From: an uncultured Chloroflexia bacterium
GTDB taxonomy: Bacteria; Chloroflexota; Anaerolineae; JAAYZQ01
Length of the DNA: 64,000 bases
Direction: 5' to 3'
NCBI GenBank assembly: GCA_963700285.1
Contig: CAVOXA010000014.1
Coordinates: 544,001 to 608,000, forward strand
In this document: in pieces, positions 17,559-59,615 of the stretch
Position numbering within the stretch: position 1 is the stretch's first letter
Layout: each line of letters begins with the position of its first letter
Made by a program: the position numbers and the translations under genes
Notes under the pieces: model-generated
Seen by the model: the letters and a program-made list of their open reading frames with translations, nothing else
What the model was told of the DNA's origin: nothing
Databases searched by the model: none

Positions 17559-18833
17559 CTAGGACAGGGTAGCCCTCACAGTACCGGCAGCCGCAGCCAG
17601 GGCTTGGTCCACCAGCTCTCCCTGGGAGCCGCCGCCCTGGGCGAAATTGGGCCGGCCGCCGCCCTGGCCACCGATCGCTTCGCATGCCTGCCGCACAAGG
17701 GCACCCATGTTCGCGTCCAGGTCTTTGGAGCAAGCAAAGGTGAAATAGCTCTTTTCGCCCTGCTGGCCCCGACTCGCCAACAGGGCAACCGTCCCTGGCT
17801 GAGCGACCAGCCTCTGGGCCAGATGCTTGAGATCGTCCAGGCTGCGGCCATCATAGAGTCCCTGGACGATACGGACGTCTCCCGCAAGTTCTCCCGGGCC
17901 GGGTTGTTCCAACTGTAGAGGCTTTGCCTGATGCCAAAGCGCCGTCGATTCAGCATCCAAGCGCGCATCACGGGAGTGACGCAGAGCCCGACGGGTCTCC
18001 TTGAGTTCATCGCTCAAGCGGTGGATGGCATCAAGCAGCTCCCAATGCCCGACGGTGAACTCTTGGGCCAGCTCCATCACGGTGGCATTCTTGGCCTGAT
18101 AGTCGGCCAACGCCCGCCCTCCGCACAGGAACTCGACGCGGGTTTCGGTACCGCGCCGCTCGCTGCGCGTGATCTTGATGAGACCAACCTCACCCGTACG
18201 GCGGACGTGGGTTCCGCCGCAGGCAGAACAATCAAAGAGGGCAGTCGATGCCGAGTACGGATCGCCGCCGTCGATTTCGACGACGCGCACCGGGCCACCA
18301 TGGACCAGGGGTTTTCGCAAGGGCAGTGAGGCTATCTCTTCATCGGGCACGAACCGGGCCATTGCGCGCCGGTTCTCGAAGACGATGGCGTTGGCCAAAA
18401 GCTCAACGAGAGCCAGTTCATCGCTGGAAAGGGGGGCACGATCGAGGTCCAAGGTGGCATATTCGTTCGACAAGTGAAAACCGACCGTGTTGGCCCCCAA
18501 CTCCTGGACAAAGGCCGCGGATAGAATGTGCTGGCCCGTGTGCTGCTGCATCAAGTCAAAGCGACGGCCCCAGTCAATGGCTCCTTCAAGCGGGCCAGTC
18601 CCCAGTGATTGGGAGATGACGTGGACCACGGCACCATCGGACTCTCGCTCAAGCACGTAAACGACCTGGACCTCGCCTAGCATACCAGTATCATGTGGTT
18701 GGCCGCCGCCCGTAGGATAAAAAGCCGACCGGTCCAGTACAACTGCCGGATCTCCATTCCACTGGAGCTGCTCTATCACGTAGGCAGAGAAGCCAGTCTG
18801 ATATGGATCGTCATAATAGAGACGCTCTGTCAT
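17559..18833 (-). CDS. alaX: alanyl-tRNA editing protein AlaX-L with DHHA1 domain
   Basis: TERLYYDDPY, FYPTGGGQPHDTG, MQQHTGQHILS, CGGTHV, GGGRPNFAQGGG. Confidence 0.9.
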   Translation of the reverse strand: MTERLYYDDPYQTGFSAYVIEQLQWNGDPAVVLDRSAFYPTGGGQPHDTGMLGEVQVVYVLERESDGAVVHVISQSLGTGPLEGAIDWGRRFDLMQQHTGQHILSAAFVQELGANTVGFHLSNEYATLDLDRAPLSSDELALVELLANAIVFENRRAMARFVPDEEIASLPLRKPLVHGGPVRVVEIDGGDPYSASTALFDCSACGGTHVRRTGEVGLIKITRSERRGTETRVEFLCGGRALADYQAKNATVMELAQEFTVGHWELLDAIHRLSDELKETRRALRHSRDARLDAESTALWHQAKPLQLEQPGPGELAGDVRIVQGLYDGRSLDDLKHLAQRLVAQPGTVALLASRGQQGEKSYFTFACSKDLDANMGALVRQACEAIGGQGGGRPNFAQGGGSQGELVDQALAAAAGTVRATLS

Positions 18834-20929
18834 GCGCGACTCCTCCGGCGCCGGGGAGTACCACCTTTCGGTGCCGGTTTTTCAGTTGCCAGAAGTACAG
18901 CAATCGCTGCAACAATCACAGCCAGGACTGCAGCCATCAGCGCCCAGGTCCAGGGCGGGTGGATGCCGAAAAGCGGTGCCACCGTCCAGGCCATCCATAG
19001 CGCCAAGCCCACAAACACAAGCCCAGTGGCAAACTTGATGGTCGAGGTGTGGCGATTGAGGAATTGCCCAAGTTGCTGGGATGTTGTACCAAAGTAGCTC
19101 AGGGCAAAGACGACGATCAGGGGCAGGATGAACATCAGGCAATAGAGAACCAGGTAGACAAAGGCCTGAGAAGCCAGCTCGGGAACGCTCAAGACGAACA
19201 TGATGGTCGGAAGATAGACCTGTCCGGTACAGGCCAGCTCTAGCAAAGATACCACGAACCCGGTGAAAAATGCCATGGCCACAAAGGCACGGACCTGAGA
19301 ACCCTCGCGGATCACCTTGTTGATACGACGTCGCAGGTTCATGGGCAGCTTGAGCGCCATCTCGGAGGCCTCACCCTCGCGCACTTTGAAATAGTCGCGG
19401 AAGGTCAGGATGGCCAGCACTACGCACATCACTGCGGTGAGCAGGTACACCCAACGCCCCAGTGCCGTGAAAAAGCCGAGGGACTGTACGATCTTTAGCA
19501 ACCCTACACCAACGAGCAAGTAGGTCAGGAAAACCCCCAGCGCGAAGGCGATGCCCACGAACAAGATGTCGCGCCCCCGACGGCCGGTGAAAGTCAGGTA
19601 GGAGATGAAAAAGATCAGCGTAGCAAAGGCACAAGGGTTGAGCCCATCTATGAGACCCGCACCGAGCACTGTGAGGGCGCCAAAGGATCGAAAGCGCTCC
19701 ACCAAGCTCTGCTCCGCCTGGGACGCATCAAAATCATCCCAGGTGCGTTCTGCACCGGTCTGGGAGTACTGGCCCACCGTGGCCATCAGATTGTTGAGGG
19801 TGGCATCCGTGCCGATCAGGACATCCTGTCCGACAAAGAGCATGGGTGTGGAGAGGCGCTTTGCCTCCGGAACACCATACTTTTCGCTCATCCACTCGTT
19901 GAGCGTTTTGCTCTCTGCTTCCTCCATGGAAAAGCTTTCCACAACAAGCTGAGGGTACTGGCTCTCCACAACCTTTAGATCGTAGCTGGTACGCGCGCAT
20001 TCCTGGCAGCCGGCCTGCTCAAAGTAGGCCATATAGATGGGCTTCTCGTCGTTCGCCGTTGCCTCAGCCATCGCCTCGGTTGTCGCAGTTGGCTCCTCGC
20101 GGACAAGGCTGTCTACCAAATCCTCCCACTGTGGCAGACTAACACCCCCCTGGCCCACGTACCCCTCAACCAACTGGGGCAGCTGCGACTGTATCGCCGG
20201 GAGGCCGGTCAGAATCTGCCCGCCGACTACGATCTGTGGCGTACCTGGCGCAGGTCCATCGATGCCTAGCGCGGTATTGAGTTCGGCTAGCTTTTGCGCA
20301 TTCTCAGTTTGCGTGACGTCCGCAGCGTAGGGCTGGAGCCCGCCATATTCCAGGGCCAGGTCGGCGATCAGGTTGTTCAAGGCCTCAAAATCAGCGTGAT
20401 TCGGATCGTAAAAGACCAGCATCTGCACCGCTGGCTCCGGTGTCGGCAATACCACTTCTGGTAGATCGTCCAACGAGGGGTAATCGACGCCGCCCTGGGC
20501 CAGATATTCATCGATATAGGTCTCCAGCTTGCCGGGAATATCTACCGAGCCCACCAGCACTTTGTCGCCGATGACCAAGGCTGGCACCGCCCCCTGGCTT
20601 TCTTCCGGCACACCCAGCTTCATCTCTAGACCCAACAGGGTCAGGTACTTGTCGGTATCGCTCCAGACCTCAATATACTGATACTCTACCTGGTCGCCGT
20701 ACTTTTCATAGACCCCAGGCAGATAATCATCCATGACATCGTGGCAGTGAGGGCAGCTTTCCCCATAGAAAAGGAGGAACCGTACCACAGGCTGTTCCGC
20801 TTCGACCGTGCTATCCTGCGCTAGGGCCGTTGGGGCACCCACCAGGCACAGAACGAACATTCCCAGCGCAACGGTGAGCACCCACAAAGACGCCACCGCG
20901 TTCTTTCTCATCTGTGTCAACCTCTCCAT
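18830..20929 (-). CDS. exported thioredoxin/glutaredoxin-like domains fused to a CcdA/DsbD-beta transmembrane electron transporter
   Basis: Signal peptide; CPHC and CQEC motifs; DGLNPCAF and LELACTGQVY in the TM domain. Confidence 0.85.
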   Translation of the reverse strand: MERLTQMRKNAVASLWVLTVALGMFVLCLVGAPTALAQDSTVEAEQPVVRFLLFYGESCPHCHDVMDDYLPGVYEKYGDQVEYQYIEVWSDTDKYLTLLGLEMKLGVPEESQGAVPALVIGDKVLVGSVDIPGKLETYIDEYLAQGGVDYPSLDDLPEVVLPTPEPAVQMLVFYDPNHADFEALNNLIADLALEYGGLQPYAADVTQTENAQKLAELNTALGIDGPAPGTPQIVVGGQILTGLPAIQSQLPQLVEGYVGQGGVSLPQWEDLVDSLVREEPTATTEAMAEATANDEKPIYMAYFEQAGCQECARTSYDLKVVESQYPQLVVESFSMEEAESKTLNEWMSEKYGVPEAKRLSTPMLFVGQDVLIGTDATLNNLMATVGQYSQTGAERTWDDFDASQAEQSLVERFRSFGALTVLGAGLIDGLNPCAFATLIFFISYLTFTGRRGRDILFVGIAFALGVFLTYLLVGVGLLKIVQSLGFFTALGRWVYLLTAVMCVVLAILTFRDYFKVREGEASEMALKLPMNLRRRINKVIREGSQVRAFVAMAFFTGFVVSLLELACTGQVYLPTIMFVLSVPELASQAFVYLVLYCLMFILPLIVVFALSYFGTTSQQLGQFLNRHTSTIKFATGLVFVGLALWMAWTVAPLFGIHPPWTWALMAAVLAVIVAAIAVLLATEKPAPKGGTPRRRRSRA

Positions 20930-21183: not shown

Positions 21184-23505
21184 ATGATAGCAGAAGAACT
21201 GTTGGCCCAGATCGAGATCTTTCGCCAGGTGCCGGAGGACATTGGTCGTGAAATCCGGGAGAAAGCAGAGATAGCCCCATACGCGCCAGGTGAGATTATT
21301 GTTCCGGCCGGCCAACCCTTTACCTTTTTCGGTGTTCTGCTGCAGGGACAGGCCGATGCCTACTTGCCCGAGCAAGAGGCGGAACCACGTAGCATAGAGA
21401 CCTTTAGAGTCGGCTCGACCGTGGGCGAGATGTCACTTTTGACCGGTCAGAATGCGCCGGTGGACGTGATCGCCACCACACCCTGCCGGGTGCTGCTTGT
21501 TCCCGTAGATCTTTTCCACCACTGGGTGCAGGCCGATCCCACCTCATTGCAGACCTTTTCCAGGTCTGTCGCCCGGCGCAGTGTTCTGGTTGAGAAAGGG
21601 CTGCAGGTACAGACCCAATCGGCGGCCGAGCTGGATGCGGTCCAAGATCCCTATGGTCTGAGCCTAACACCCGACGAACCGCAGAAACTCCTCGTCATCA
21701 ACCTACGAACCGGTAGCCTCAAATACCGCTACTTTGACACGGAAGACGAAGCCAGGAATGTCGAGGGGCAGGTAGAATGGATCGGCGAGCCCCGCGCCCT
21801 GCAAAGCCACACCACGGCCAGCGGAGAACATACTTTTGCGCTAGGTCAAGTTGACCACCGCGAGGCCCTTGACATAGCGCTGCAGCGGCTGGTAGGTCTC
21901 GAGCCAGGTGGCCCGGAAAGCTTGGCTGAAATCACGGCTGTGGGCCACCGGGTCGTGCATGGTGGCGAAAAGTACTCCAGCCCCGTGGTAATTGACAGAG
22001 AGGTACTCACAGACATCCGCAGTTATGCGCATTTGGCCCCTCTTCACAACGCCATGCACGCCCTGGGCATCGAGTGGTGTCAGGAAATCTTGCCCGATGT
22101 GAGGCACATCGCTGTCTTTGATACTGCATTCCACCAGACGATGCCGCCCTATGCCTATCGATACGCGCTACCCGAGGAGCTGTATGAAAAGGATGGCATC
22201 CGCCGCTACGGGTTCCACGGAACGTCGCATCAATACGTGGCATTGATGGCAGCAACCCACTTGAGGAAGCGGTTCTCTCGGCTCAAGATCATCACCTGCC
22301 ATCTGGGCGAGGGCGCGTCGGCCTGCGCCATTGACCATGGCCGGTCGATCGATACCAGCATGGGCCTCACCCCTCTCGAAGGATTGGTGATGGTCACCCG
22401 ATCTGGAGATATCGATCCCGCCGTGGTTACTTATCTGATGCGCAAGGGGTTATCGGCCGACGAAATAGAGCACCTTCTTCTGCGCGAAAGCGGTTTGAAG
22501 GGCCTCTCAAACCTATCTGGCGACACGCGCGAGATCCCCGATGCCGCCAATGCGGGCGACCCCAAGGCCATGCTTGCCGCCGAGACCTTTGCCTACCGTC
22601 TGCGCAAGTACATTGGCGGCTACTATGCGGCGCTGGGCGGATTGGATGTCCTGGTATTCACTGGGGGGATCGGTGAGAACGCTGCCGGGATACGGTCCAT
22701 GGCCTGCACCGATCTCTGGGGGCTGGGGATCTTGATAGACGCTGTCAAGAATCGGGCCGTTCGCGATGCGAGCGAGGGGGTCGTGGACATCTCACACCCT
22801 GACTCAAAGGTCAAGGTGCTGATCATTCACTCTGATGCATCACGCATGATCGCCCGCGAGACAATCCGCGTCCTGGGCTACGAAGCGATTACCAGACAGC
22901 TGCAGGCCAGCCAGATCCCCATTCCTATCGGAGTTTCTGCCCACCACGTCCACCTTAGCCAGGAGCACGCAGAGCAGTTGTTTGGAAAGGGCCACCAGCT
23001 CACCCCTCACGTGCCTTTGTCGCAGCCCGGCCAGTATGCCGCCCAGCAATCTGTGCGGCTCACAGGCCCACGGGGCAGCATTGACCGGGTACGCGTGCTA
23101 GGCCCCGTACGCAAGGAAAGCCAGGTGGAGGTCTCGCGTACAGAAGGGTTTCGTCTCGGCATCCACGCCCCGATCCGCATGTCGGGTGACCTCGATGGGA
23201 CACCGGGGCTCATGCTGGAAGGGCCCGCCGGCCAGGTCGAGATCGAGAACGGCGTCATCTATGCCCAAAGACACCTACACATGACGCCTACGGATGCTCG
23301 AAAGCTGGGGCTAGAAAACCACGACGTCGTTCGCCTGCGTGTGGAAGGCGAACGCGAGCTGATCTTTGGCGACGTGGCTGTGCGTGTCTCTCCCAAATTC
23401 CAACTGGAATTCCACCTGGACACCGACGAAGCTAATGCTGCCGAACTCAACACCGGAGATGTGGCTTACCTGGACGGTATCCAGAAACGGGGGAACCGGG
23501 GATAG
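21184..23505 (+). CDS. ackA: cNMP-binding domain + acetate/propionate kinase + PduL phosphotransacylase fusion
   Basis: N-terminal CNB domain (GEMSLL). Kinase motifs GHRVVHGG, APLHN, VFDTAFHQ, RYGFHGTSH, FTGGIGEN. PduL motifs GVSAHHVHLS, LSQPGQYA, QRHLHM, FHLDTDEANAA. Extended -10 TGATATAAT at 21103. Confidence 0.9.
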   Translation: MIAEELLAQIEIFRQVPEDIGREIREKAEIAPYAPGEIIVPAGQPFTFFGVLLQGQADAYLPEQEAEPRSIETFRVGSTVGEMSLLTGQNAPVDVIATTPCRVLLVPVDLFHHWVQADPTSLQTFSRSVARRSVLVEKGLQVQTQSAAELDAVQDPYGLSLTPDEPQKLLVINLRTGSLKYRYFDTEDEARNVEGQVEWIGEPRALQSHTTASGEHTFALGQVDHREALDIALQRLVGLEPGGPESLAEITAVGHRVVHGGEKYSSPVVIDREVLTDIRSYAHLAPLHNAMHALGIEWCQEILPDVRHIAVFDTAFHQTMPPYAYRYALPEELYEKDGIRRYGFHGTSHQYVALMAATHLRKRFSRLKIITCHLGEGASACAIDHGRSIDTSMGLTPLEGLVMVTRSGDIDPAVVTYLMRKGLSADEIEHLLLRESGLKGLSNLSGDTREIPDAANAGDPKAMLAAETFAYRLRKYIGGYYAALGGLDVLVFTGGIGENAAGIRSMACTDLWGLGILIDAVKNRAVRDASEGVVDISHPDSKVKVLIIHSDASRMIARETIRVLGYEAITRQLQASQIPIPIGVSAHHVHLSQEHAEQLFGKGHQLTPHVPLSQPGQYAAQQSVRLTGPRGSIDRVRVLGPVRKESQVEVSRTEGFRLGIHAPIRMSGDLDGTPGLMLEGPAGQVEIENGVIYAQRHLHMTPTDARKLGLENHDVVRLRVEGERELIFGDVAVRVSPKFQLEFHLDTDEANAAELNTGDVAYLDGIQKRGNRG

Positions 23506-32022: not shown

Positions 32023-32214
32023 TTGACGTTTAAATTTTGTACTCTACTTTGATTCCCGCCGTACCCTACCCTCACGGCGGCCCAAGCGAGAATCACAGCT
32101 CCTGCGTTGTGAATTGAGGAACGCGGCTCGTGGAGCATTATCCGGCCTCAACTACCCTCGAGACGATAGCCACGACTCCAGATACGATTGCCCTGTTGGA
32201 AAACCGGCATCAGG

Positions 32215-32243
32215 TGGACAACGCAATCTGCTTGTGGTATACT
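32215..32243 (+). promoter_or_regulatory. sigma70-type promoter of the paired membrane-protein genes
   Basis: TGGACA-N17-TATACT with extended TG. It supports a start at GTG 32305. Confidence 0.55.
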
Positions 32244-32304
32244 GGCTCTGGTGGGTCGTCTGGAAACAGCTGTGGTGAAGAGCTCATGTGACTGGGGGCG
32301 AGGC

Positions 32305-34770
32305 GTGCAGATCAAGACCAGTCTACGGGTGCAGCAGGTCCTTGTTATGGGCTGTGGCCTGTTGGCCATGGCGCTCATCACCGGCAGTCTCGGCAACTTG
32401 AGCGGAATGCTCAACGGGGCACTGGCAGCCGGCAGCCTGCTGGCAGTGGCCCTGCTTGTCCCCTGGCGACGACGGGACATCCCACTCTGGCAGTTGGCGA
32501 TGGCGCTGGCGATCATGACCATCTCTCTGCCCATCACCGCCAGGGGCGGCGTTGTTGGGTTGATGGCAGCTTCCCTATTTTTCTTCGCCCTCTCCCTGGC
32601 AACCTCGGAAAAAAACTCTAGCATGGCAGATACGCTGATCCCCGCGGCCTTGCTCTTTGGCTCCTATTGGATCGCTGTCGAATATGTGCCCCTTGCCTGG
32701 CACAGCCAGCAAGCGCTGGCCATCAGCTTTTCCTGGCTCGCGGGATCCGGACTGAGACTCGGGCCCACGGCACTGGGCCTGCCGCTCCTGGTGCTATTCA
32801 CCTGCTACGCCCTGAGCGTTTTCCTCCTTTCCCTCCACCGGGAACCGCTACCCGGAACCGCGGGAGAAACCGGCGACCAAAGAAGGATCTGGCGCAGGTT
32901 GGGCGATCTGTTTGCATGGCTGCTGGCCCTGTTGCTGGCGGCCGTAGCCTACCTTTGGCTGCAGCCGCGCCTGGGAACCCTGGTACACGGCCTATGGCCT
33001 GCCTCCATTACCGCCTCGCCGGTACCGAGCAGCGCGCCTGACCTGACCTACCTAGCGTGGCTGCCGCTCCTGTTCCTGTTGCTGTGGCTGGTGTCTGCAC
33101 TGGCCAGCTTGTCCATGCGTCCAGCTCCACTGCGGCTGGGCCCACGGCCAGGAGCGGCCGGGTGGCTAGCCGCCGGACTGGCGCTGCTGGGCCTGGCAGC
33201 GGCCGTACTGACCCTCGAGCCCCCCTACCAGACGCGACGCGGAACCATTCTGTTCTACGATACCGGGCACCTGGAGTGGGGTCGCCCGGCCTTTGGCCAG
33301 TACGGCCCCCACAGCGGTGGCACCTTTGGTCTGTGGCCTGACTATCTGGCCGCTTTTGGCTATACGTCAAAGAGCGGCCTTTTGACGGCGCAAAACCTGG
33401 CGGAAGCCCAAGCCATAGTCCTGATCAACCTTCCCCAGAACCTCACAGACGGCGAAAAGGAGCGGCTACTGGCTTATGTAGCGTCTGGTGGCGCCCTCAT
33501 CATCTGGGGCGAGCATACCGGCGTGGGCCGCATCCGCGAGCCCATCAATGATCTGCTGGCTGGCCTGCCGGGCGCCCCCATCCACCTGCGCTTCGATTCA
33601 GCGGTACCTGTACGACAGGGTTGGGCGGAGGGGCTGGCGCTGCGGCCCCACCCGGCGACCCAGGGCATCCAGAACCCCATCGACCTGGTCATGGCCGTGG
33701 GTGCCTCGCTGCGCATCGAACCGCCGGCTGTGCCGCTCATCGTCGGGCGCTTTGGGCACTCGGACATGGGCGATGGCGGCAACCGCGCCCGCAACTATGT
33801 GGGTGACATGCGCTACAATCGTGGCGAGCAGCTGGGCGACGTTGTGCTGGGCGCCCAGCTTGCCTACGGCAGCGGACAGATCGTCGTGCTGGGCGATACG
33901 ACCCCCTTGGGCAGCGTCAATCTTATGACAGCCATGCCCTTTCACGCCCGCCTGCTCGACTGGGCCACGGCAGAGCGATCAGAAACCTGGGCTCTTTTTC
34001 TGCACAATGGCTGGCTGGCAGCTCTGCTGTTCGCCGGGGCCGCAGCTTGTTTGGTGGCCGGCAGGAGCCGGTTCGCCCTGGTCGCGGCGGCTCTGATATT
34101 GGGCTTGACCCTGACGCTGACGGGGAGGATCAATGCGGCCCAGAGTGCGCCAGTGAAGCCCCAGGGCGGCATCGCCTACGTCGATGTCTCCCACCAGGAG
34201 AGGTTCGACCGCTTGTTGTGGGAGACAACCTCCATCGGCGGGCTCAACTACAACCTGGCCCGAAACGGCGCCCTGCCATTGTTGCTCCACAAGATCGATA
34301 CTGACGCCCTGGACAGGGCAGACCTGCTGGTGGTCATTGCCCCAGGCGGCCGCTTTTCGGCGCAAGAGGTAGAGACCATCAACAGGTGGGTGAAGAAGGG
34401 CGGACAGCTTCTGGTATCGGCTGGCTTTGAGGAAAGTGAGGCCAGCGAGGCGCTGCTGGCGTCATTTGGCCTGGCGATCGGGCACATTCCGCTGGGGCCG
34501 GTCGAGTTGGAACGCGAGGCCGGTCCGGTCCGTTTCCACGAAGCCTGGCCTGTGAACGCCACGGACGAAGCAGCTCAGCCGATTGTGGAGGGCTATGGCT
34601 ACCCGCTGGCCGTCTACCAGCCGTGGGGAAGAGGAGGTGTGGTGCTCATCGGGGACTCGGCCTTCCTGCTCGGGGGAAGCCTGGAGGACCAATATTCGTA
34701 CCAGGAGGGAAACATCCTGCTATTGCGCGATATTCTGACCGACTACCTCGCAGTCGGAGACGCACCATGA
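32305..34770 (+). CDS. large polytopic membrane protein with two GATase-like (DUF4350/GldG-type) domains
   Basis: About 10 N-terminal TMs; AIVLINLP...LLAYVASGGALIIWGEHT...GQIVVLGDT; two TMs; LLVVIAP...RWVKKGGQLLV...GGVVLIGDS. Confidence 0.75.
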   Translation: MQIKTSLRVQQVLVMGCGLLAMALITGSLGNLSGMLNGALAAGSLLAVALLVPWRRRDIPLWQLAMALAIMTISLPITARGGVVGLMAASLFFFALSLATSEKNSSMADTLIPAALLFGSYWIAVEYVPLAWHSQQALAISFSWLAGSGLRLGPTALGLPLLVLFTCYALSVFLLSLHREPLPGTAGETGDQRRIWRRLGDLFAWLLALLLAAVAYLWLQPRLGTLVHGLWPASITASPVPSSAPDLTYLAWLPLLFLLLWLVSALASLSMRPAPLRLGPRPGAAGWLAAGLALLGLAAAVLTLEPPYQTRRGTILFYDTGHLEWGRPAFGQYGPHSGGTFGLWPDYLAAFGYTSKSGLLTAQNLAEAQAIVLINLPQNLTDGEKERLLAYVASGGALIIWGEHTGVGRIREPINDLLAGLPGAPIHLRFDSAVPVRQGWAEGLALRPHPATQGIQNPIDLVMAVGASLRIEPPAVPLIVGRFGHSDMGDGGNRARNYVGDMRYNRGEQLGDVVLGAQLAYGSGQIVVLGDTTPLGSVNLMTAMPFHARLLDWATAERSETWALFLHNGWLAALLFAGAAACLVAGRSRFALVAAALILGLTLTLTGRINAAQSAPVKPQGGIAYVDVSHQERFDRLLWETTSIGGLNYNLARNGALPLLLHKIDTDALDRADLLVVIAPGGRFSAQEVETINRWVKKGGQLLVSAGFEESEASEALLASFGLAIGHIPLGPVELEREAGPVRFHEAWPVNATDEAAQPIVEGYGYPLAVYQPWGRGGVVLIGDSAFLLGGSLEDQYSYQEGNILLLRDILTDYLAVGDAP

Positions 34771-37295
34771 ACTCTGTCCTGGCCTGGTTGAGCGTCTGGT
34801 CGCTGGCAACAGGCTGGCTGCTGCTTACCGGTTTTTTCCTGCCCCCCGATGGCAGGGGATGGGTCTTTGCGGGCTTTGGGATCCTGCTGGCAGTCTTGGC
34901 TGCGCGTAACACGCGCTGGCGGCGGGTCGATCCCTGGTTCTGCATTCTGGCGCCACCATTGGGGATTGCGTCCATCCTCTGGCCCTTCCCCTACCAGGCC
35001 GGTCCGCTGCTGGTTCTGGCTGGGTTGTTGGTCTCCCTGGGCCTGCGCCGCGCGCGTTGGCTCACCCCGCTCTGTCTGGGTCTATGCCTGACCGGCGCGG
35101 TGTGGATCGCTCAGGGCGGCGCTGTAGTGGCCTATTGGTGGTTGGGAGCCCGATACCACGAAGCCAATGCCCTCACGCCTGTGCTGTACTGGCTGAGCAG
35201 GGCTCTGGGCTGGACGGTGGGCAGCAGCCAGGGCAGTCTCTTCCTGCCCCACATCGAGGGCATGGTCCGGGCCACCACGACCTGGGAGCGCCTGGGCGCA
35301 CTGCCAGCCATGCTGTTGGGCGCTGGGGGTCTGATGCTTTTGCCACAGCTACTGCGGCGGTCAGCCCGCGATCTCTTGTTTCGGTTGTTCGCGGCTGGCA
35401 TCCTGGGAACCGGCTACCTGCTGCTCCGTTACCTGGTTCTGACCGCAATGGTAGCCATCAACAACAACCCCACGCTCTTCTGGCTGCCTCTGTCGATGGC
35501 CCTTACCTTCCTGCCCCTGGGCCTGCTGCTGGCCAGGGCGCTGCCCCTGCGTCCTGCTGTATCCGAGCCCGCTGCCCCTGACCGGCGCGATGCCGGCGGG
35601 CGTTACGTGGCTCTGGCGGGCCTGGCCTTCCTGAGCGGCATATCTGTCATCGCGTTGCTCACCTTCCCGGATCCGGGCAGACCAAAGGCGGGCCGGGTAC
35701 TCTTGGACGAGTACAATAGCAACTGGGAGTGGACTACCCAGGCCCTCGACACCGAGTGGTACGGCCAAAAGTCGGGCTACAACTACTACAGCCTGGGCCA
35801 GTGGCTCAGGTACTATTACCAGGTGGACACCAATTTCCGGCCGCGAACTCCAGAGATGTTGAGGAACTATGACGTGTTGGTCATCAAGACGCCGACAGCG
35901 CCCTTTGCCCCGGAAGAGATTGAGGCCATCACGGCCTGGGTTGGGGCCGGCGGCGGGCTCTTTCTCATCGGCGATCACACGAACGTGTTTGGCACCAGTT
36001 CCTACCTCAACCCCCTGGCTCGGCGCTTTGGGCTGCGCTTTCGCTACGATTCGACCTACGACCTGCCCACGCTGCGCGTGACCCAGTACGAGCGCCCTGA
36101 ACTGCTGGCCCATCCCGCCGTGCTGGAACTGCCGCCCTTTCTTTTCGCCACTTCCAGCACCCTTGAAGCGCCGCTTCTGGCTGGCAACGTGATGGTCGGA
36201 TATGGACTGCGAGCCCTGCCGGTCGACTATTCCAAGCGGGTGTTCTTTCCCGATAAGGAAAAGGAACAGGACTATCCCTTTGGCCTGTTCCTACAGTCGG
36301 CCAGCGTTCGCCACGGTCGAGGCCGGGTGGTAGCCTTTACCGACAGCACCGTCTTTTCCAACTTTACGATGTTTCTGGGCGGCAAACCCGAGTTCTTTTT
36401 GGGGGTGATGAACTGGCTCAACTACGCTGAACGCTGGCCCTGGCTGGACAGCGTTCTGGTAGCCCTGGCCCTGCTGACAGGTATTGGCGCTGTTGTCCTG
36501 GCGGGAACCCTGAACCGGCGGCGGGCCAGCATCGTGATTGGGGCCGTGCTGCTTCTTGCTGCAGCAATTGGACCCTGGGCCAGCCTGCAAGTGGCCGAGG
36601 CCAGATACCGTCTGCCGGATCCTCACAGGCAACCGATCAGTATTGCCTTTGAGGCCGAACACTCGCGCCTCCTGCTGCCCACCACTCCCGCCAGCGGGCC
36701 ACCAGAGGCCAGTTTCCAGACATTCTACGTCTGGACGCAGCGCCTGGGCTATGTACCTACCTTTGCCCCCACACTGGAAGAGGCGTTGAGAGCAGCCCAG
36801 GTCCTGGTCGTGATCGATCCCTTCAGGCCCTTTGATCCAACCGAGATTGAGGCCGTCAAGCAATTCATATACGACGGAGGGCGACTCCTCATGCTGGCAG
36901 AGCCCTCGGGCGAAGGTCCGCCGCCTATGGCAGGCGCCGATCTGCTGGCCCCCTTTGGGCTGGGCCTGGACGCACGCCGGCCAACGACGGGAGAGATCTA
37001 CAACACGGCTGGGGAGCGGCAGGGGCAGGTATTTGTGACGGGTGTAGTGAGCGGTGGAGAACCACTGCTCACGCTGGGCGGCCAGGCCCCAGTGGCAGCG
37101 GCGGCGCGCTACGGCGATGGACTGGTGGTCGCTGCCGCCTTTGCCCGGCCCTTTAGCGATGGGGAAATGGGCAGTACGGCAGTGGTTCCCAACGACCACC
37201 AGCGTTTTCTGTACGAGGTCGAGTTTTGGCTTCTACGTGGATTGGTGAGCGGCGAGTTCCCGCCACTGCGCAGGCCGGCCGGCGGTAGCCGGTGA
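34767..37295 (+). CDS. paralogous polytopic membrane protein with exosortase-like TM segment and two GATase-like (DUF4350/GldG-type) domains
   Basis: ATG 34767 overlaps the upstream TGA. YDVLVIKTP...WVGAGGGLFLIGDHT...GRVVAFTDS; QFIYDGGRLLML. Confidence 0.75.
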   Translation: MNSVLAWLSVWSLATGWLLLTGFFLPPDGRGWVFAGFGILLAVLAARNTRWRRVDPWFCILAPPLGIASILWPFPYQAGPLLVLAGLLVSLGLRRARWLTPLCLGLCLTGAVWIAQGGAVVAYWWLGARYHEANALTPVLYWLSRALGWTVGSSQGSLFLPHIEGMVRATTTWERLGALPAMLLGAGGLMLLPQLLRRSARDLLFRLFAAGILGTGYLLLRYLVLTAMVAINNNPTLFWLPLSMALTFLPLGLLLARALPLRPAVSEPAAPDRRDAGGRYVALAGLAFLSGISVIALLTFPDPGRPKAGRVLLDEYNSNWEWTTQALDTEWYGQKSGYNYYSLGQWLRYYYQVDTNFRPRTPEMLRNYDVLVIKTPTAPFAPEEIEAITAWVGAGGGLFLIGDHTNVFGTSSYLNPLARRFGLRFRYDSTYDLPTLRVTQYERPELLAHPAVLELPPFLFATSSTLEAPLLAGNVMVGYGLRALPVDYSKRVFFPDKEKEQDYPFGLFLQSASVRHGRGRVVAFTDSTVFSNFTMFLGGKPEFFLGVMNWLNYAERWPWLDSVLVALALLTGIGAVVLAGTLNRRRASIVIGAVLLLAAAIGPWASLQVAEARYRLPDPHRQPISIAFEAEHSRLLLPTTPASGPPEASFQTFYVWTQRLGYVPTFAPTLEEALRAAQVLVVIDPFRPFDPTEIEAVKQFIYDGGRLLMLAEPSGEGPPPMAGADLLAPFGLGLDARRPTTGEIYNTAGERQGQVFVTGVVSGGEPLLTLGGQAPVAAAARYGDGLVVAAAFARPFSDGEMGSTAVVPNDHQRFLYEVEFWLLRGLVSGEFPPLRRPAGGSR

Positions 37296-37305
37296 ACCCG
37301 GGGTG

Positions 37306-38307
37306 CTACGGCCGGTACTCCTGTACCAGCTCTGCCATCGCGGGATCGTCGGCAATGGAAGCATCCATCCACACCGATTGCCATTGTTCCCCACTGAGGC
37401 TGCCATCCGCCTCCAGGGTTACCTGCAGTCTGCCAACCCTCCGTCCCGAGTGCTGTGGACTCGCCTGCTCGGCAGTGACCACCAGCGTCCCGGTTTCGGG
37501 TGCCCGTACAGCGACCTCGGGCAGTTGCCCAGGCAGAGCCGCGATGACCAGGTCAATACCCGCAACTTCCTGTGCCAGGGCCAGCCCAGCGCGATAGGTG
37601 AGGTTGGTCAGGACCACGACGGTATCTGCCTCTTTGGCCATCTCGGGTAGATATTGGGCCGCCGCTTCCTGCGGATCAAGGACTAGAAAGCCGTCGAGCG
37701 GCTCAGAGGGCAGCCGGGTCAGGCCGAGCACGCCCAGGCGGTGGTCGCCAACATCCAGGACCGTGTAGGGTTGGGTCAGCAACTCGCCGGTAGCGCTCAG
37801 CACTACGTTGGCCGACAGCACTGGAAAATCAGCCTCCCCCAATCGCCGGGTTAGCTTCTCGGCCCCCAGTTTCAGCTCCTGCGGGCCCAGGGCCATGGCA
37901 TCGTAGCTCATCATGTTCATGCCGGCGACAATAACTTCACCGTCCGTGAGGTCGCCAAGCCAGCCGCCCCCACCCAGAGCGTCACCGGTGTCGAGCAGGA
38001 GAAGATGCTCCGCGTCCGCTTCCTGCTGCTTCAAGTAGGTGGCTCGCCGGCGGAACCCGCCGGTAGAGTTTTTTCCTCAGCCGCAAGGCTCCGTCTCCCC
38101 CCAATTGTCGTTGGTATGGAGCACCAGCAATTGCGAGGGCGTCACCGGCGCCGTGGGGAAAGACTCGACAAGCGGGGAAGTGTATCCGCCAGATGCTGCG
38201 GCAGCGCCAGGCCCGTCAGCCTCAGGTGCCAACGCCCCGCAGCCTGCGGCCAACAGACAAAGGGCCAACAGCACAAGTACCGAGGATCTGCGAAAATGGT
38301 TGAACAT
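37306..38307 (-). CDS. UshA/5'-nucleotidase-like lipoprotein; selenoprotein with CxU motif (UGA at 38077-38079 read as Sec)
   Basis: ORFs 38077..38319 and 37306..38034 are in the same frame, separated by one TGA and 14 sense codons: LLVLHTNDNWGETEPCG-U-GKNSTGGFRRRATYLK...LLLLDTGD. Lipobox LAAGC. SECIS-like hairpin follows. Confidence 0.85.
38043..38079 (-). other. Sec UGA codon and bacterial SECIS-like stem-loop
   Basis: TGA GGAAAAAA CTC TA CCGGCGG GTT CCGCCGG C GAG: a perfect 7-bp GC stem with a G-initiated apical loop 20 nt after UGA and a lower CTC/GAG stem. Confidence 0.8.
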
Positions 38308-38315
38308 GGTCCCTC

Positions 38316-39419
38316 TCAAGCATTTTGGTCCCCCTCACCCCCGGCCTTTCGGCTGCGCAACAGGAGCCAGAGCGCCACGCCCGCCAACACCAGACCGACC
38401 AGGAGGGCTCCGACCGAGACGAGCAGCAGTAGCGGTCCCAGGGTTTCGTCCTGACTGCTGGCCGGCCCAGCGACCGCGCCCTGCCCTGGGCCCGTTGTAG
38501 GCACCAACCTAGCCTCCAGTTCAATGGTCGGCAGGGGTGTTCGAGTGGGCAACGGCGTGATGGTTGGAGGCGCTGGCGAAGGGGTACTCGTCCAGGTAGC
38601 GGTGGGCGACGGCGTTGGGGTCTGAGTGGGCGTGGGTGTGGGTGTGGCCGTTTCGGTAGGCGCCGGCGTTTCGGTGGGCGTCGGAGAAGGCGGAACCGCG
38701 GTGGGCGTCTCGGTCGGCGGCGCCGGAGTCGGGGTCTGCGTGGGCGGCCGGCGCGTCGGCGTGGGTGACGGGATTGGCGTCACGGTCGCCGCCGGCTGGT
38801 TCGGGTCGGGCCACAGACCCACAGCATCGACAAAGATCCAATCGTTGCCGTACGTGGTCGGATGATCGGTCCAGACAAACACGGTCATGGTTGGCCCTGT
38901 GGCTCTGGCCGAGACGGTCAGGTCGGGCCAGGAGTTGATCCCCCGTTCGGAGGGGCCCCATACCACCGTGGGTGCAAGAGGATCGGTGCCGCCGGTGGGA
39001 TCCAGGCCAAGTCTGCGCTCAAAGTTTGGTTGGGTAACAGCCGCCCAGCCCGCGTCTGTCTGGTATACGACGCCGGGCGTCACCCCGACCTGCTGGTAGA
39101 TGCCGCCCCGAAAGGGCACACCATCCGACAGCAGCCACAGGGACGGCGCCCCCCAGTAGGTATCAATGGAGCTGCGGAAATCCATGTTTCCGGCCAGAAT
39201 ATAGGGCTCCCAACCGTTGGGGACCTGTAGTTGCTTGCCCTGGTAGTCACGACCAGAAAAATGATCGAAGCCGCAGTTCTGGGTCAGGTTGCCGGGTTCC
39301 AGGCAGGGGTTTCTAGCCCCCGCCCTGGAAAGCACGGGCCTAAAGGTTAGTACCACCAAGGTCCCGAGCAACGCCCAGATACCCCAAACGATCAAGAACC
39401 TGTTATTCTTTGCGCTCAT
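38316..39419 (-). CDS. cell-surface protein: signal/TM, beta-sandwich (CBM-like) domain, Pro/Thr-rich stalk, C-terminal TM anchor
   Basis: ATG 39419 preceded by extended -10 TGCTATACT. NLTQNCGFD...VPNGW...GGIYQQV...GLDPTGGTDP; (PT)n linker; TM followed by RSRK. Confidence 0.75.
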   Translation of the reverse strand: MSAKNNRFLIVWGIWALLGTLVVLTFRPVLSRAGARNPCLEPGNLTQNCGFDHFSGRDYQGKQLQVPNGWEPYILAGNMDFRSSIDTYWGAPSLWLLSDGVPFRGGIYQQVGVTPGVVYQTDAGWAAVTQPNFERRLGLDPTGGTDPLAPTVVWGPSERGINSWPDLTVSARATGPTMTVFVWTDHPTTYGNDWIFVDAVGLWPDPNQPAATVTPIPSPTPTRRPPTQTPTPAPPTETPTAVPPSPTPTETPAPTETATPTPTPTQTPTPSPTATWTSTPSPAPPTITPLPTRTPLPTIELEARLVPTTGPGQGAVAGPASSQDETLGPLLLLVSVGALLVGLVLAGVALWLLLRSRKAGGEGDQNA

Positions 39420-39600
39420 TGTCGACTCGTGCTGGCTTGGCCCTCCAGCGCGGCACAGTATAGCAAAGGGAACCTGAAAAGTCAAAGCCGGATCCTCTTC
39501 GCGGGAATGACAGGTGAGCTTGGGCAGTGTTTCCACCGAAATCGATACTCCACCCTCCGGGACGGTTCTTTGCGCACGGCGACAGCTATGGTACAATGAG

Positions 39601-40943: not shown

Positions 40944-41760
40944 GTGCCAGGGAAGGGAACCTCTGAGCGTGCTAACTATCAGATCCGGTCCGTCGAACGG
41001 GCTCTGGATGTCCTGGAGTCGTTTACGGTCGAAGACCCCGCGCTGCACTTCGATGACCTCTGCGAGCGTACCCACCTGCCCAAGAGCACCGCTTTCAAAA
41101 TCCTCTCCGTTCTGGAACAGCGGGACTATGTGCAGAGAAGCCCGGAAGGCGGGAACTATCGCGTCGGCTTCCAGGCCTTCGAGGTCGGCAACAGGTACCT
41201 GGCCGGGCTGACCATGATCGAGAATCGTCCATCCTTTCTTGAAAAAACTAGTCCGCAGATTTCCCCAAAGTGCGGCCCACGTGGCCGTTCTATCACCCAA
41301 TGAGACCAAGATCGTTTATGTAGATGTCCTGACCCGGAACGCCTACCTGGTTCCTGCACCCATTGGCAGCCAATTGTGGGCCCACGCAACGGCCTTGGGC
41401 AAGTGTCTTCTGGCCGGGCTGCCTGAGGAGGCGTTGGAGCGCAGGTTGGCGTGCATCGAGATGCCCCAACTGACAGCAAAGACCATGACCGATCCACAGT
41501 TGCTCCGTGAGCACCTGAAGCAGGTATACGCCCAAGGGTATGCCCTTGACGACGAAGAGATAAGCCCTGGCAACCTCTGTGTGGCCGTCCCCTGCCGGGA
41601 CCGGCAAGGGAGGACGATCGCGTCTATCAGTACCTCGCACGTAAAGGAGGCCATGGCCGATGACACGGCCACCGTCATTGCTGAAATGTGTCAGGTCGCC
41701 AGAGATGTATCCAAGGCGATGGGCTATGCGCCACCGCCAGCCGAGACACCATGTCTGTGA
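40944..41760 (+). CDS. IclR-family transcriptional regulator, with one +1 frameshift near 41223
   Basis: SVERALDVLESF...LPKSTAFKIL HTH; HATALGKCLLA, GYALDDEE, CVAVP. An extra A in GAGAATC splits it into two ORFs. Confidence 0.9.
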
Positions 41761-57628: not shown

Positions 57629-57714
57629 AGGCTCTCCTTCCGGTGAAAAACACCCCGGGCAAGACGCCGGGTACGCACTTACAGCACAGAAAACTGCCCA
57701 GGAGGCTGGTTACG

Positions 57715-59615
57715 TTGGCTTCTGATGCCCAGGCATCCGACTATGACCTGAAAAACGCGGTTTCCGAGAATCGCCTGACCGGCATCTGGCACCTGATGAC
57801 CGGTTATCGCTTCACCTACCTGGTGGCGACGCTCAGCCTGGGCATCGCCGCGGTGGCCCGGACCAGCTCCATGCTGCTGCTGGGCAGGTACGCGGACGAT
57901 GTCCTGGGCCAGGCAGACATGGTACGCTGGCTGCCTCTGGTCGCGCTGGGCTTTGTCATCCTGGCCGTGATCCAGGGAGCCATGACCTTCCTCAGCGGAA
58001 AGCTGGCCGCCCGGACCGCCGAGGGCATTGTGCTGCGCCTGCGCAACTACGTCTATGACCACATCCAGCGACTGTCCTTCACCTACCACGACCGGACGCC
58101 GACAGGGGACCTGATCCAGCGCTGCACGTCGGACGTTGATGCCATCCGCCGTTTCTTTGCGGACCAGGCCATCAGCGCCGGGCGCATCCTCTTTCTCTTT
58201 ATCGTCAATCTGACAGCGCTTTTGTTCTTGAACTGGCAGCTGGCTCTGTTCTCTGTCATCGTCGTGCCCATCATTGTGATGATGTCGTTCTTTTTCTTCC
58301 GCAGGGTATCCAAGGCCTACGAGGCCTACCAGGAGCAGGACGCTGTCCTCTCCACCACCCTCCAGGAGAACCTGACCGGTGTGCGCGTGGTCAAGGCTTT
58401 TGCCCGTCAGGCCTACGAACGGGAAAGATTCGAGGGCAACAACTGGGAAAAGTACCTGCGGGGAAGGCGGCTTCTGATCATGCACTCCCTCTTCTGGCCG
58501 ATGTCGGACATTCTGTGCGGCTTTCAGATGCTGGCTGGCTTTTTCGTGGCCGCACTCATGGCCATCAACGGGACCATCACCGTGGGTACCTATCTGGCCT
58601 ACGCGGGCATGGTCATCTGGCTCATCTGGCCCATGCGCAACCTGGGCCGGCTGATCGTCCAGATGTCCACCGGCCTGGTCTCGTATGGGCGCGTGACCCA
58701 AGGTCATCAAGGAGGATCGCGAGCCCCTGGATGAGGGAATGGTTGAGGTACCCGATTGTGTCGACGGCCGCTTCGTCTTCGAAGATGTCTCATTCCAGTA
58801 CGATGACGACAGCCCGGTGCTGGAGGATATCAGCTTCCGGTGCGAGCCCGGCCAGGTCGTGGCCCTGCTCGGTTCCACCGGATCCGGGCAAGACGACGCT
58901 GGTCAACCTCCTGCCCCGCTTCTACGACTATACCAGCGGCAGCCTGACCCTGGACGGCGTCGAACTGAAAGACTATCCGCGCCATTTCCTTCGCCAGCAG
59001 ATCGGCATCGTCGAGCAGGAGCCATTCCTCTTCTCCCGCACCATCCGCGAGAACATCAGCTACGGCGCAGACCGGGAGGTAACGGAAGCCGAGATCGAAG
59101 CCGCAGCCCAGGCCGCAGCGATTCACGACAGCATCCTCTCTTTCCCCGAGGGCTATGACACGTTGGTCGGCGAGAAGGGCGTCACCCTATCCGGCGGGCA
59201 GAAGCAGCGAATCGCCATTGCCCGCACCCTGCTCAAGGACCCCTGTATCCTGATCCTGGATGATTCTACCTCGTCGGTGGACACCGAAACCGAGGCCGAG
59301 ATCCGTGGCGCTCTGGAACACCTGATGGAGGGCCGCACAACCTTCATCATCGCCCACCGCATCCAGAGCGTGATGAACGCCGACCTGATCCTGGTGCTGG
59401 ACAAGGGCCAAATCGTCCAGCGAGGCAAACACGAGGAGCTGGTGGCCCAGGAGGGCATCTACCGCCGCATCTATGACATGCAGGCCCGCATCGAAGTCGA
59501 GCTGAGGCAGGAGATAGCCGGCATCGATATACAGCCTTCCGAGCTCTCAGAAGAACCAAGATTGCGCACGTCAACGGAATTCCTGAGGGGAATCACGCGT
59601 GTCCGACGAGTTTGA
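57715..59615 (+). CDS. ABC exporter (TMD+NBD) subunit 1, with two +1 frameshifts near 58698 and 58886
   Basis: AGGAGG then TTG 57715. TGDLIQRCTSDV; GSTGSGKT restored after removing one G; LSGGQKQR; ILDD. Confidence 0.85.

Follow-up and report, generated by a model that had tools for sequence, protein, structure and literature searches.

A stand-alone UshA-like selenoprotein of Anaerolineae lacks the nucleotidase metal site and may act as an exported thiol/selenol oxidoreductase

We analyzed a 64,000-nucleotide stretch of an uncultured Chloroflexia genome (hereafter, the window) and examined a gene encoding a nucleotidase-fold lipoprotein. With moderate confidence, we propose that this protein uses its Cys75-Gly-Sec77 motif to act outside the cell as a thiol/selenol oxidoreductase. 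The redox reading is favored because the metal site and the catalytic His have been lost and because, in relatives, thioredoxin, CcdA and cytochrome modules lie beside the gene or are joined to the domain in one chain. A preliminary description of this DNA had already proposed surface thiol/selenol redox chemistry, a suggestion that gains independent support from the operons and fusions with thioredoxin, CcdA, redoxin and cytochrome c. The features are collected in Table 1.

Table 1. Features of the selenoprotein gene and of associated genes, with positions counted from the first letter of the window
Feature	Position	Strand	Basis
Complete gene for the UshA-like selenoprotein (333 aa, TGA taken as Sec)	37306..38307	minus	ORF translation
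Predicted lipoprotein signal peptide, end LAAG-C24	38236..38307	minus	Sequence
Pro/Ala/Thr-rich linker, residues 25-59	38131..38235	minus	Sequence
5'-nucleotidase N-domain fold, residues 60-333, without C-terminal substrate domain	37309..38130	minus	Alignment, AlphaFold model, structure comparison
D67, equivalent of UshA D41; sole former ligand conserved in the group (97/100)	38107..38109	minus	Alignment, family counts
Cys75-Gly76-Sec77, predicted redox motif (TGA 38079-38077)	38077..38085	minus	Sequence, family conservation
SECIS hairpin of bacterial type with a 7-bp stem; its GUU loop lies 20 nt past the UGA	38047..38063	minus	Folding, consensus
D109, equivalent of bridging D84 (Asp 51/100, Asn 43/100)	37981..37983	minus	Alignment, family counts
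GPQE replacing GNHE; metal ligand N116 and catalytic H117 gone	37876..37887	minus	Alignment, family counts
N235 replacing ligand H217	37603..37605	minus	Alignment, family counts
ALPG replacing GHxH; H252 and residue 254 gone	37528..37539	minus	Alignment, family counts
Co-oriented gene upstream, encoding an exported domain, a Pro/Thr linker and a C-terminal membrane helix	38316..39419	minus	ORF
Sigma-70-like promoter match, 10/12, upstream of the two-gene unit	39457..39485	minus	Consensus match only
Multi-thioredoxin-CcdA protein, candidate electron donor; outside the selenoprotein's unit	18830..20929	minus	ORF, profile matches

The gene is a single open reading frame running from an ATG at 38307 to a TAG at 37306, with one internal in-frame TGA at codon 77 (38079-38077; U77) and an RBS-like GAGGGA immediately 5' of the ATG. 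Its product is predicted to be an exported, membrane-anchored, outward-facing lipoprotein with a conserved Cys/Sec pair, and a lipobox-like pattern was recorded in 63 of the 96 relatives that had sufficient upstream DNA. The boundaries first given for the protein (37306..38120) cover the domain and leave out the signal peptide and linker (38307-38131). The reading frame stops after the linker helix, with no match to PF02872, and 81 of 82 members end no more than 20 residues past the domain, the remaining one being a partial hit.

Selenocysteine at position 77 is well supported by the sequence data, because the TGA is conserved, a SECIS hairpin follows it and the genome holds Sec machinery. Among 100 Anaerolineae relatives, codon 77 was TGA in 95 and TGC or TGT in five. 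The hairpin, with an energy of -16.0 kcal/mol, lies within the consensus found in the consulted part of PMC13188914, including its Fig. 2 legend (loop of 3-9 nt with G in its first two positions, stem of 4-16 bp, 16-37 nt from the UGA, energy of at most -7.5). Stems of at least 6 bp with a G-led loop occurred in 92 of the 95 TGA genes, compared to 31.7 expected under synonymous recoding, and in none of the five Cys genes. The folding energy of the whole 80-nt segment was uninformative (z = 0.04) and was set aside for the recoding test.

It was noted that the genome holds tRNA-Sec and an intact selA, together with selB and selD, both of which are frame-split. These splits are likely assembly errors, since 10 of 75 conserved control genes are likewise frame-split in this assembly, selB is intact in a same-genus genome and the differences between the two assemblies are mostly one- or two-base insertions in the present one; selD was not found in the same-genus genome. 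In all, the frame splits recorded (at L030-L035 and at window positions 40944-41760 and 57643-59615) affect selB, selD, a probable IclR-type regulator and an ABC transporter, as would fit indel errors in the assembly. Across the class, nine of the 105 family-positive genomes had no selA match, and in one of these nine a second copy of the gene carries Cys. As 260 of the 301 Anaerolineae genomes have selA, its co-occurrence with the family discriminates weakly and was not used as evidence.

Several further features of the Sec-encoding copies were recorded. The gene adjoins selA in six genomes (G001:C4, G050:C24, G093:C296, G131:C120, G164:C64 and G284:C67, the last being L109), convergently in genus g9 and 1.1 kb upstream on the same strand in G284. 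The SECIS element itself shows turnover between the window gene and the equivalents in L044-L125: in the window's clade the hairpin lies on the T-G-G-F-R-R codons (loop 20 nt past the UGA), while other members place it on A-R-R-A codons with compensatory C-G/U-A changes, and the shift coincides with the change from GGLARR to GGFRRR. One locus (L078:3339-4262) has two in-frame TGA codons (N-U-G-U-G), giving UxU in place of CxU, and its operon contains a second family copy, a Trx-CcdA gene and an ArsP-type permease. Cys-encoding paralogues (PCAC, PEPCGC) were encountered in L067-L070 of family f3 and in L066, in genomes that also have a Sec copy.

An AlphaFold model (81-sequence alignment, Sec modelled as Cys) reached a mean pLDDT of 95.4, and its structure matches were CD73, the Thermus 5'-nucleotidase, SoxB and E. 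coli UshA, with Foldseek TMq values of 0.77-0.88 against UshA/CD73-type nucleotidases. Comparison with E. coli UshA (1ush), a check put forward in the preliminary description, revealed a shared N-domain fold (Z 33.8, rmsd 1.9, 262 aligned) that covers UshA 34-355 only, and the claimed absence of the C-terminal substrate domain was thereby borne out. The corresponding values for SoxB were Z 34.5, rmsd 2.2 and 264 aligned. From end to end, residues 60-333 can be aligned to the N-domain plus linker helix found in solved 5'-nucleotidases. The preliminary description suggested that the CGU loop may take over the old pocket; on the loop, the model shows only that C75 forms a beta-bridge with T82 in a short hairpin where the Thermus enzyme has a longer one; a literature search for a CD73 loop equivalent to the CxU loop found nothing. 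The best NCBIfam match was NF041198 (UshA_like_PCGU; 144.7 bits, E 3.5e-42), under its curated cut-off of 275 and confined to profile positions 20-272 of 519. Three other Anaerolineae members scored 159-196 bits against this profile, and Pfam Metallophos had no match in the selenoprotein.

Alignment to solved 5'-nucleotidases placed HTNDNW at DxH, DTGD at DxGD, GPQE at GNHE, LTN at LSH and ALPG at GHSH, in agreement with the earlier reading of DNW, GPQE, LTN and ALPG in place of DxH, GNHE, the later His and GHxH. The UshA ligands, which we take to be numbered D41, H43, D84, N116, H217 and H252, and the catalytic H117 were mapped by alignment. Retention was counted in 100 distinct sequences drawn from the 301 genomes of the class and a further sequence search; this set comprises the matches whose DNA was fetched, rather than all matches, and its contig titles name Anaerolineae and other Chloroflexota. 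D41 was retained in 97 members, H43 in three, D84 in 51, H217 in 47, H252 in two, and N116 and H117 in none. At the position of the catalytic His117 the window protein has Gln143, and His was found there in 0 of 100. Of the two Asp ligands first described as remaining, both are present in the window protein, but only the D41 equivalent is conserved, the D84 equivalent being Asn in 43 of 100. Canonical ligands were reduced to one in 18 of 82 members, and one member retains none. In the same 100 sequences, Cys75 was present in 97, position 77 was Sec or Cys in all 100, and R87 and R88 were each kept in 99.

As an internal control, this genome also encodes two canonical UshA paralogues, and both retain GNHE, LSH/LTH and GGHSH. 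Compared with the same-genus copy, the selenoprotein gene gave a dN of 0.043 and a dS of 0.375, and against four other copies values of 0.29-0.34 and 1.0-1.6. Because the gene is under purifying selection and the loss is family-wide, the metal site is, as judged by alignment, absent throughout a selected family and has not simply decayed; the tree, a quick search with midpoint rooting, does not establish the order of ligand loss. The consulted part of PMC7922932 describes His117 as essential in UshA and the isolated CpdB N-domain as hydrolyzing bis-pNPP and 2',3'-cyclic nucleotides. A missing C-domain alone would therefore not settle the non-nucleotidase reading, since the isolated CpdB domain keeps some activity. 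It is the loss of the catalytic His and the ligands, beyond the missing C-domain, that argues against a nucleotidase role; with H117 and the dimetal ligands gone family-wide, the earlier judgment that such a role is unlikely is now well supported.

We also assessed relatives in which the domain is fused to redox modules. One protein, P0216, has in a single chain homologues of both the selenoprotein domain (E 2e-41) and the CcdA protein of the window (E 2e-55); by profile search it consists of a selenoprotein-domain homologue with a CPTC loop, an Ig-like domain, a CxxC thioredoxin and the same CcdA membrane domain as the window protein. Three proteins of 1,200 residues each contain two UshA-like domains, DsbA-like domains and four heme motifs. 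When proteins 429-1365 residues long were searched with the domain of P0216, 701 matches were returned, of which the best 120 were read, giving 132 domain rows. Within these best 120 of 701, a CxC (41) or CxxC (8) loop was present in 49 rows with GNH in 0 of 49, while 79 rows had GNH and a Cys loop in 0 of 79; the other four were fragments or lacked both. The 49 Cys-loop rows of this set were fused to Trx-CcdA (12), cytochrome c554 (24), redoxin (12) or a Cys-rich region (1). Going by this domain layout, the redox module occupies the place of the nucleotide-binding C-domain wherever that domain is replaced.

The same 49 rows keep D84 (47), an Asp at 116 (48), H217 (49) and H252 (49), corresponding to a one-metal site, and lose D41, H43 and H117; 45 of the 49 have Ser or Asn at the D41 position. 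The Anaerolineae and fused sets share the Cys/Sec loop, a GG and R88 and have none of the former ligands in common. Because the fused relatives keep a one-metal site that is absent from the Anaerolineae protein, the reaction they perform may not be the same. The Cys motif is missing altogether from two homologues, the redoxin fusion P0381 and P0210. A search for a longer form close to the window's clade returned one cytochrome fusion along with 14 canonical nucleotidases and no close relative among them, which is weak evidence. An UshA-like domain fused to a PCYCGC domain was also recorded (P0269; PF13798, and NF041379 CYCXC (seleno)protein below cut-off).

The link to Trx-CcdA proteins was then assessed across 301 sampled Anaerolineae genomes. 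The selenoprotein family was found in 105 genomes (best E no higher than 2.5e-52, with 21 genomes having only canonical hits set aside) and a Trx-CcdA protein in 107. Both were present in 80 genomes, the family only in 25, CcdA only in 27 and neither in 169, so that Trx-CcdA occurs in 80 of 105 genomes with the family versus 27 of 196 without it. By taxonomic family, the corresponding numbers were 22, 7, 7 and 26. Co-occurrence with CcdA-Trx fusions was a check put forward in the preliminary description; kinship among genomes inflates such tables. In 10 of the 80 genomes holding both, from families f2, f17, f44 and f52, the two genes lie no more than 3 kb apart (contigs matched by eye from search lists, distances computed), where rough arithmetic gives an expectation of about 0.2 genomes.

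The neighborhood survey supplied a further linked case (G016), and the CcdA-linked copies sit in separate branches of the quick tree. In the other 70 of the 80 genomes the genes are not within 3 kb of one another, many of the contigs being short, and 25 of the 105 family-positive genomes had no Trx-CcdA match with this query. The CcdA-linked operons carry ArsR, ArsC-like, Acr3, ArsP-type permease and MTH895/ArsE thioredoxin genes, small membrane thioredoxins, stand-alone CcdA and an Fe-S protein, as well as DGC, TauE, OsmC and cysteine desulfurase genes. These neighbors suggest an arsenic, sulfur or selenium species as the candidate substrate.

In the window, the upstream co-oriented gene (38316-39419) has its stop 8 nt before the selenoprotein ATG, and the two probably form one operon. 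The promoter scan found one sigma-70-like match compared to 0.3 expected. The upstream protein matched no Pfam or NCBIfam entry, and a homologue of it lies within 4.5 kb of the selenoprotein gene in 9 of the 19 window-clade members and in families f17, f19 and f34. It is the usual neighbor in this clade and recurs immediately upstream of the selenoprotein in four families. It was also noted that this protein has two early cysteines and two weaker paralogues in the genome. On the other side, tandem paralogous multi-pass membrane proteins with DUF4350/GIFT-like domains (32188-34770 and 34767-37295, plus strand) converge on the selenoprotein gene. The same pair was seen in L001, L003 and L008; it was rejected as a core partner because just 4 of the 19 clade members have it nearby.

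The window's own Trx-CcdA protein (18830-20929) has CPHC and CQEC domains and a membrane domain with NPC and CTG cysteines. The preliminary description had named it as a plausible electron donor, and at family level it is of the right kind, given the 10 genomes with close pairs and the 12 fusions. Its proximity in the window is no evidence, however. The gene lies 16.4 kb from the selenoprotein gene; synteny with the same-genus genome is confined to 32037-39497 (7.5 kb), with the Trx-CcdA gene outside it, and in that genome the two genes are on different contigs, so the 16 kb proximity was rejected as an argument. Within the window's clade (19 sequences, support 100), no Trx/CcdA gene was seen within 4.5 kb in flanks that are incomplete for about half, and a tblastn screen of this genome found neither a stand-alone CcdA nor a small membrane thioredoxin like those in the operons.

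Multiheme proteins and other genes of the genome were recorded as well. The genome has 14 ORFs with at least three CxxCH motifs, none of them on the window's contig. On G000 C1, nine reading frames with 3-15 CxxCH motifs lie at 550-585 kb, and this multiheme cluster is near an ArsP-type permease and an MTH895/ArsE thioredoxin at about 558-560 kb. The gene at 21184-23505 of the window (plus strand) encodes what we take, from its motifs, to be a fusion of cyclic-nucleotide-binding-like, acetate-kinase-like and PduL-like phosphotransacylase domains. Matches in sequencing runs were confined to small shares and short contigs and were set aside as evidence on expression or habitat.

In the mechanism we propose, the protein would be anchored by its lipid outside the membrane. 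A CcdA-type membrane domain would pass electrons outward from a cytoplasmic thioredoxin via the CcdA cysteines, with the direction of flow taken by analogy with DsbD/CcdA, and the CQEC and CPHC thioredoxin domains would reduce the Cys75-Sec77 bond. Sec77 is the putative attacking residue and Cys75 the resolving one, because all 100 members have Sec or Cys at position 77 whereas Cys75 is replaced in three; these three retain Sec and have Arg, Ser or Ala at that position. The target of the reduced selenol could then be an oxidized form of sulfur, selenium or arsenic, or else a disulfide in a surface protein. A broader proposal, which we put forward only tentatively and hold to be somewhat doubtful, is that of a widespread exported redox class derived from the nucleotidase fold. 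In such a class, a Cys-x-Sec/Cys-x-Cys hairpin would stand in for phosphate-ester chemistry and be wired to CcdA-thioredoxin or multiheme cytochromes, and the Anaerolineae would have its fully metal-free, arsenic/sulfur/selenium-handling surface form in anoxic sediments. If this is true, the Anaerolineae branch would represent a non-thioredoxin-fold selenol oxidoreductase at the cell surface.

Other explanations were weighed against this one. The protein could be a surface metal or metalloid binder in which Cys75, Sec77 and D67 hold As(III), Hg, Cu or similar, with Trx-CcdA keeping the ligands reduced. The ArsR, ArsC-like, Acr3, ArsP-type permease, cation-efflux protein and DGC-domain genes nearby are consistent with such a role, as are the near-invariant D67 (97/100), the one-metal site of the fused relatives and the remark, in the consulted part of PMC13188914, that Sec may serve other families as a metal ligand. 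We nevertheless regard it as unlikely: multiheme cytochrome and redoxin fusions (36 of the 49 rows) suit electron flow better, most members have no metal-resistance neighbor, and 45 of 49 fused relatives have Ser or Asn in place of D67. Quite improbable, in our estimation, is Sec-based covalent catalysis on a sulfur or selenium oxyanion or a thioester-like bond (SoxB-like substrates), in which Sec would be the nucleophile in place of metal-activated water and CcdA-Trx would regenerate it. SoxB shares the fold and is among the top NCBIfam matches, but its score is far under the cut-off (66 versus 550). R87 and R88, each kept in 99 of 100, could bind an anion, yet they overlap the SECIS element, which constrains them. 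TauE, a cysteine desulfurase/Sec-lyase-like enzyme and OsmC are among the neighbors, and selA adjoins the gene in genus g9 and lies within 1.1 kb in G284; the sulfur neighbors, however, are found in single loci.

A metal-dependent phosphoesterase with substitute ligands (D67, D109, N235 and perhaps E280/H286 or Cys/Sec) would agree with the intact fold and with a His at H286 in 40 of 82 members, and the activity of the isolated CpdB N-domain, as given in the same part of PMC7922932, means that a missing C-domain alone does not abolish activity. The counts make it very improbable: N116 and H117 are each kept in 0, H252 in two and H43 in three of 100, D84 is Asn in 43, the E280/H286 loop is missing in 37 of 82, and 18 of 82 members have one canonical ligand and one has none. 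The frameshifted selB and selD would fit a TGA that is a true stop in a gene broken or split in this genome, an explanation we consider barely credible. This codon is TGA in 95 of 100 relatives and encodes Cys in the other five, SECIS stems of at least 6 bp accompany 92 of 95 TGA genes and none of the five Cys genes, the genome has tRNA-Sec and an intact selA, and the frame splits extend to 10 of 75 control genes while selB is intact in the same-genus genome.

A 'COG0737 UshA-like, CxU' family was named by Zhang and Gladyshev in 2008 (PMC2398784) and is tabulated in PMC9312934 and PMC13188914 as well, each consulted in part. The first of these, in the sections consulted, places it among the 20 most abundant selenoprotein families of an ocean survey and among the few without a known Cys-based redox motif, and the consulted parts of the 2022 and 2026 reviews (PMC9312934, PMC13188914) give no function for it. 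Searches on UshA-like selenoproteins with multiheme, neighborhood, metallophosphoesterase, CcdA and thioredoxin terms returned texts whose consulted parts do not describe the lost site or the CcdA link. The family is thus already known by name; new here are its stand-alone, fully ligand-free lipoprotein form in Anaerolineae and the association with CcdA. This form occurs in about a third of the sampled Anaerolineae genomes (105/301), and annotation misses it: 120 of the 120 top database matches begin downstream of the UGA, and many of them bear the label phosphodiesterase or nucleotidase. Together with repeated redox fusion and clustering, the lost phosphatase site gives the family a testable role with named partners, and the natural Cys variants and single-chain fusions make bench testing easy.

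Among known systems, NF041198 (UshA_like_PCGU) has the same PCGU motif at the same place in the UshA N-domain. The selenoprotein differs in being a stand-alone lipoprotein without the C-terminal part of the 519-position profile, which in the member P0129 is a cytochrome c554-like domain, and without the one-metal site that fused relatives keep. NF049981 (UshA-like (seleno)protein family 2, CxxU) resembles it in stand-alone length (262-position model) and in having a Cys/Sec motif in the same loop, but the selenoprotein scores 43 bits against a cut-off of 140 and its motif is CxU rather than CxxU. The Omnitrophota and other fusions (P0216, P0140, P0297 and P0294), in which an UshA-like CxC/CxxC domain is joined to Trx-CcdA, DsbA-like, redoxin or cytochrome c554 modules, likewise have the Cys motif in the same loop, have lost GNH and are exported; they differ in carrying the redox partner in the same chain, in using Cys and in keeping D84, Asp116, H217 and H252.

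E. coli UshA, CD73 and CpdB, which combine a calcineurin-like N-domain with 5_nucleotid_C, share the fold of the N-domain and linker helix, whereas the selenoprotein lacks the C-domain and the catalytic His, keeps 2 of 7 metal-ligand positions and has gained Cys-Gly-Sec. The SoxB thiosulfohydrolase (TIGR04486) is set apart by its score (66 bits versus a cut-off of 550) and by the absence of its dimanganese-site ligands and C-domain from the selenoprotein. The lasso-peptide epimerase MslH (8gq9), a precedent judged by its entry title, is distant (14% identity; Z 13.8, rmsd 4.0, 230 aligned) and resembles the proposed oxidoreductase in pairing a calcineurin-like fold with non-phosphatase chemistry.
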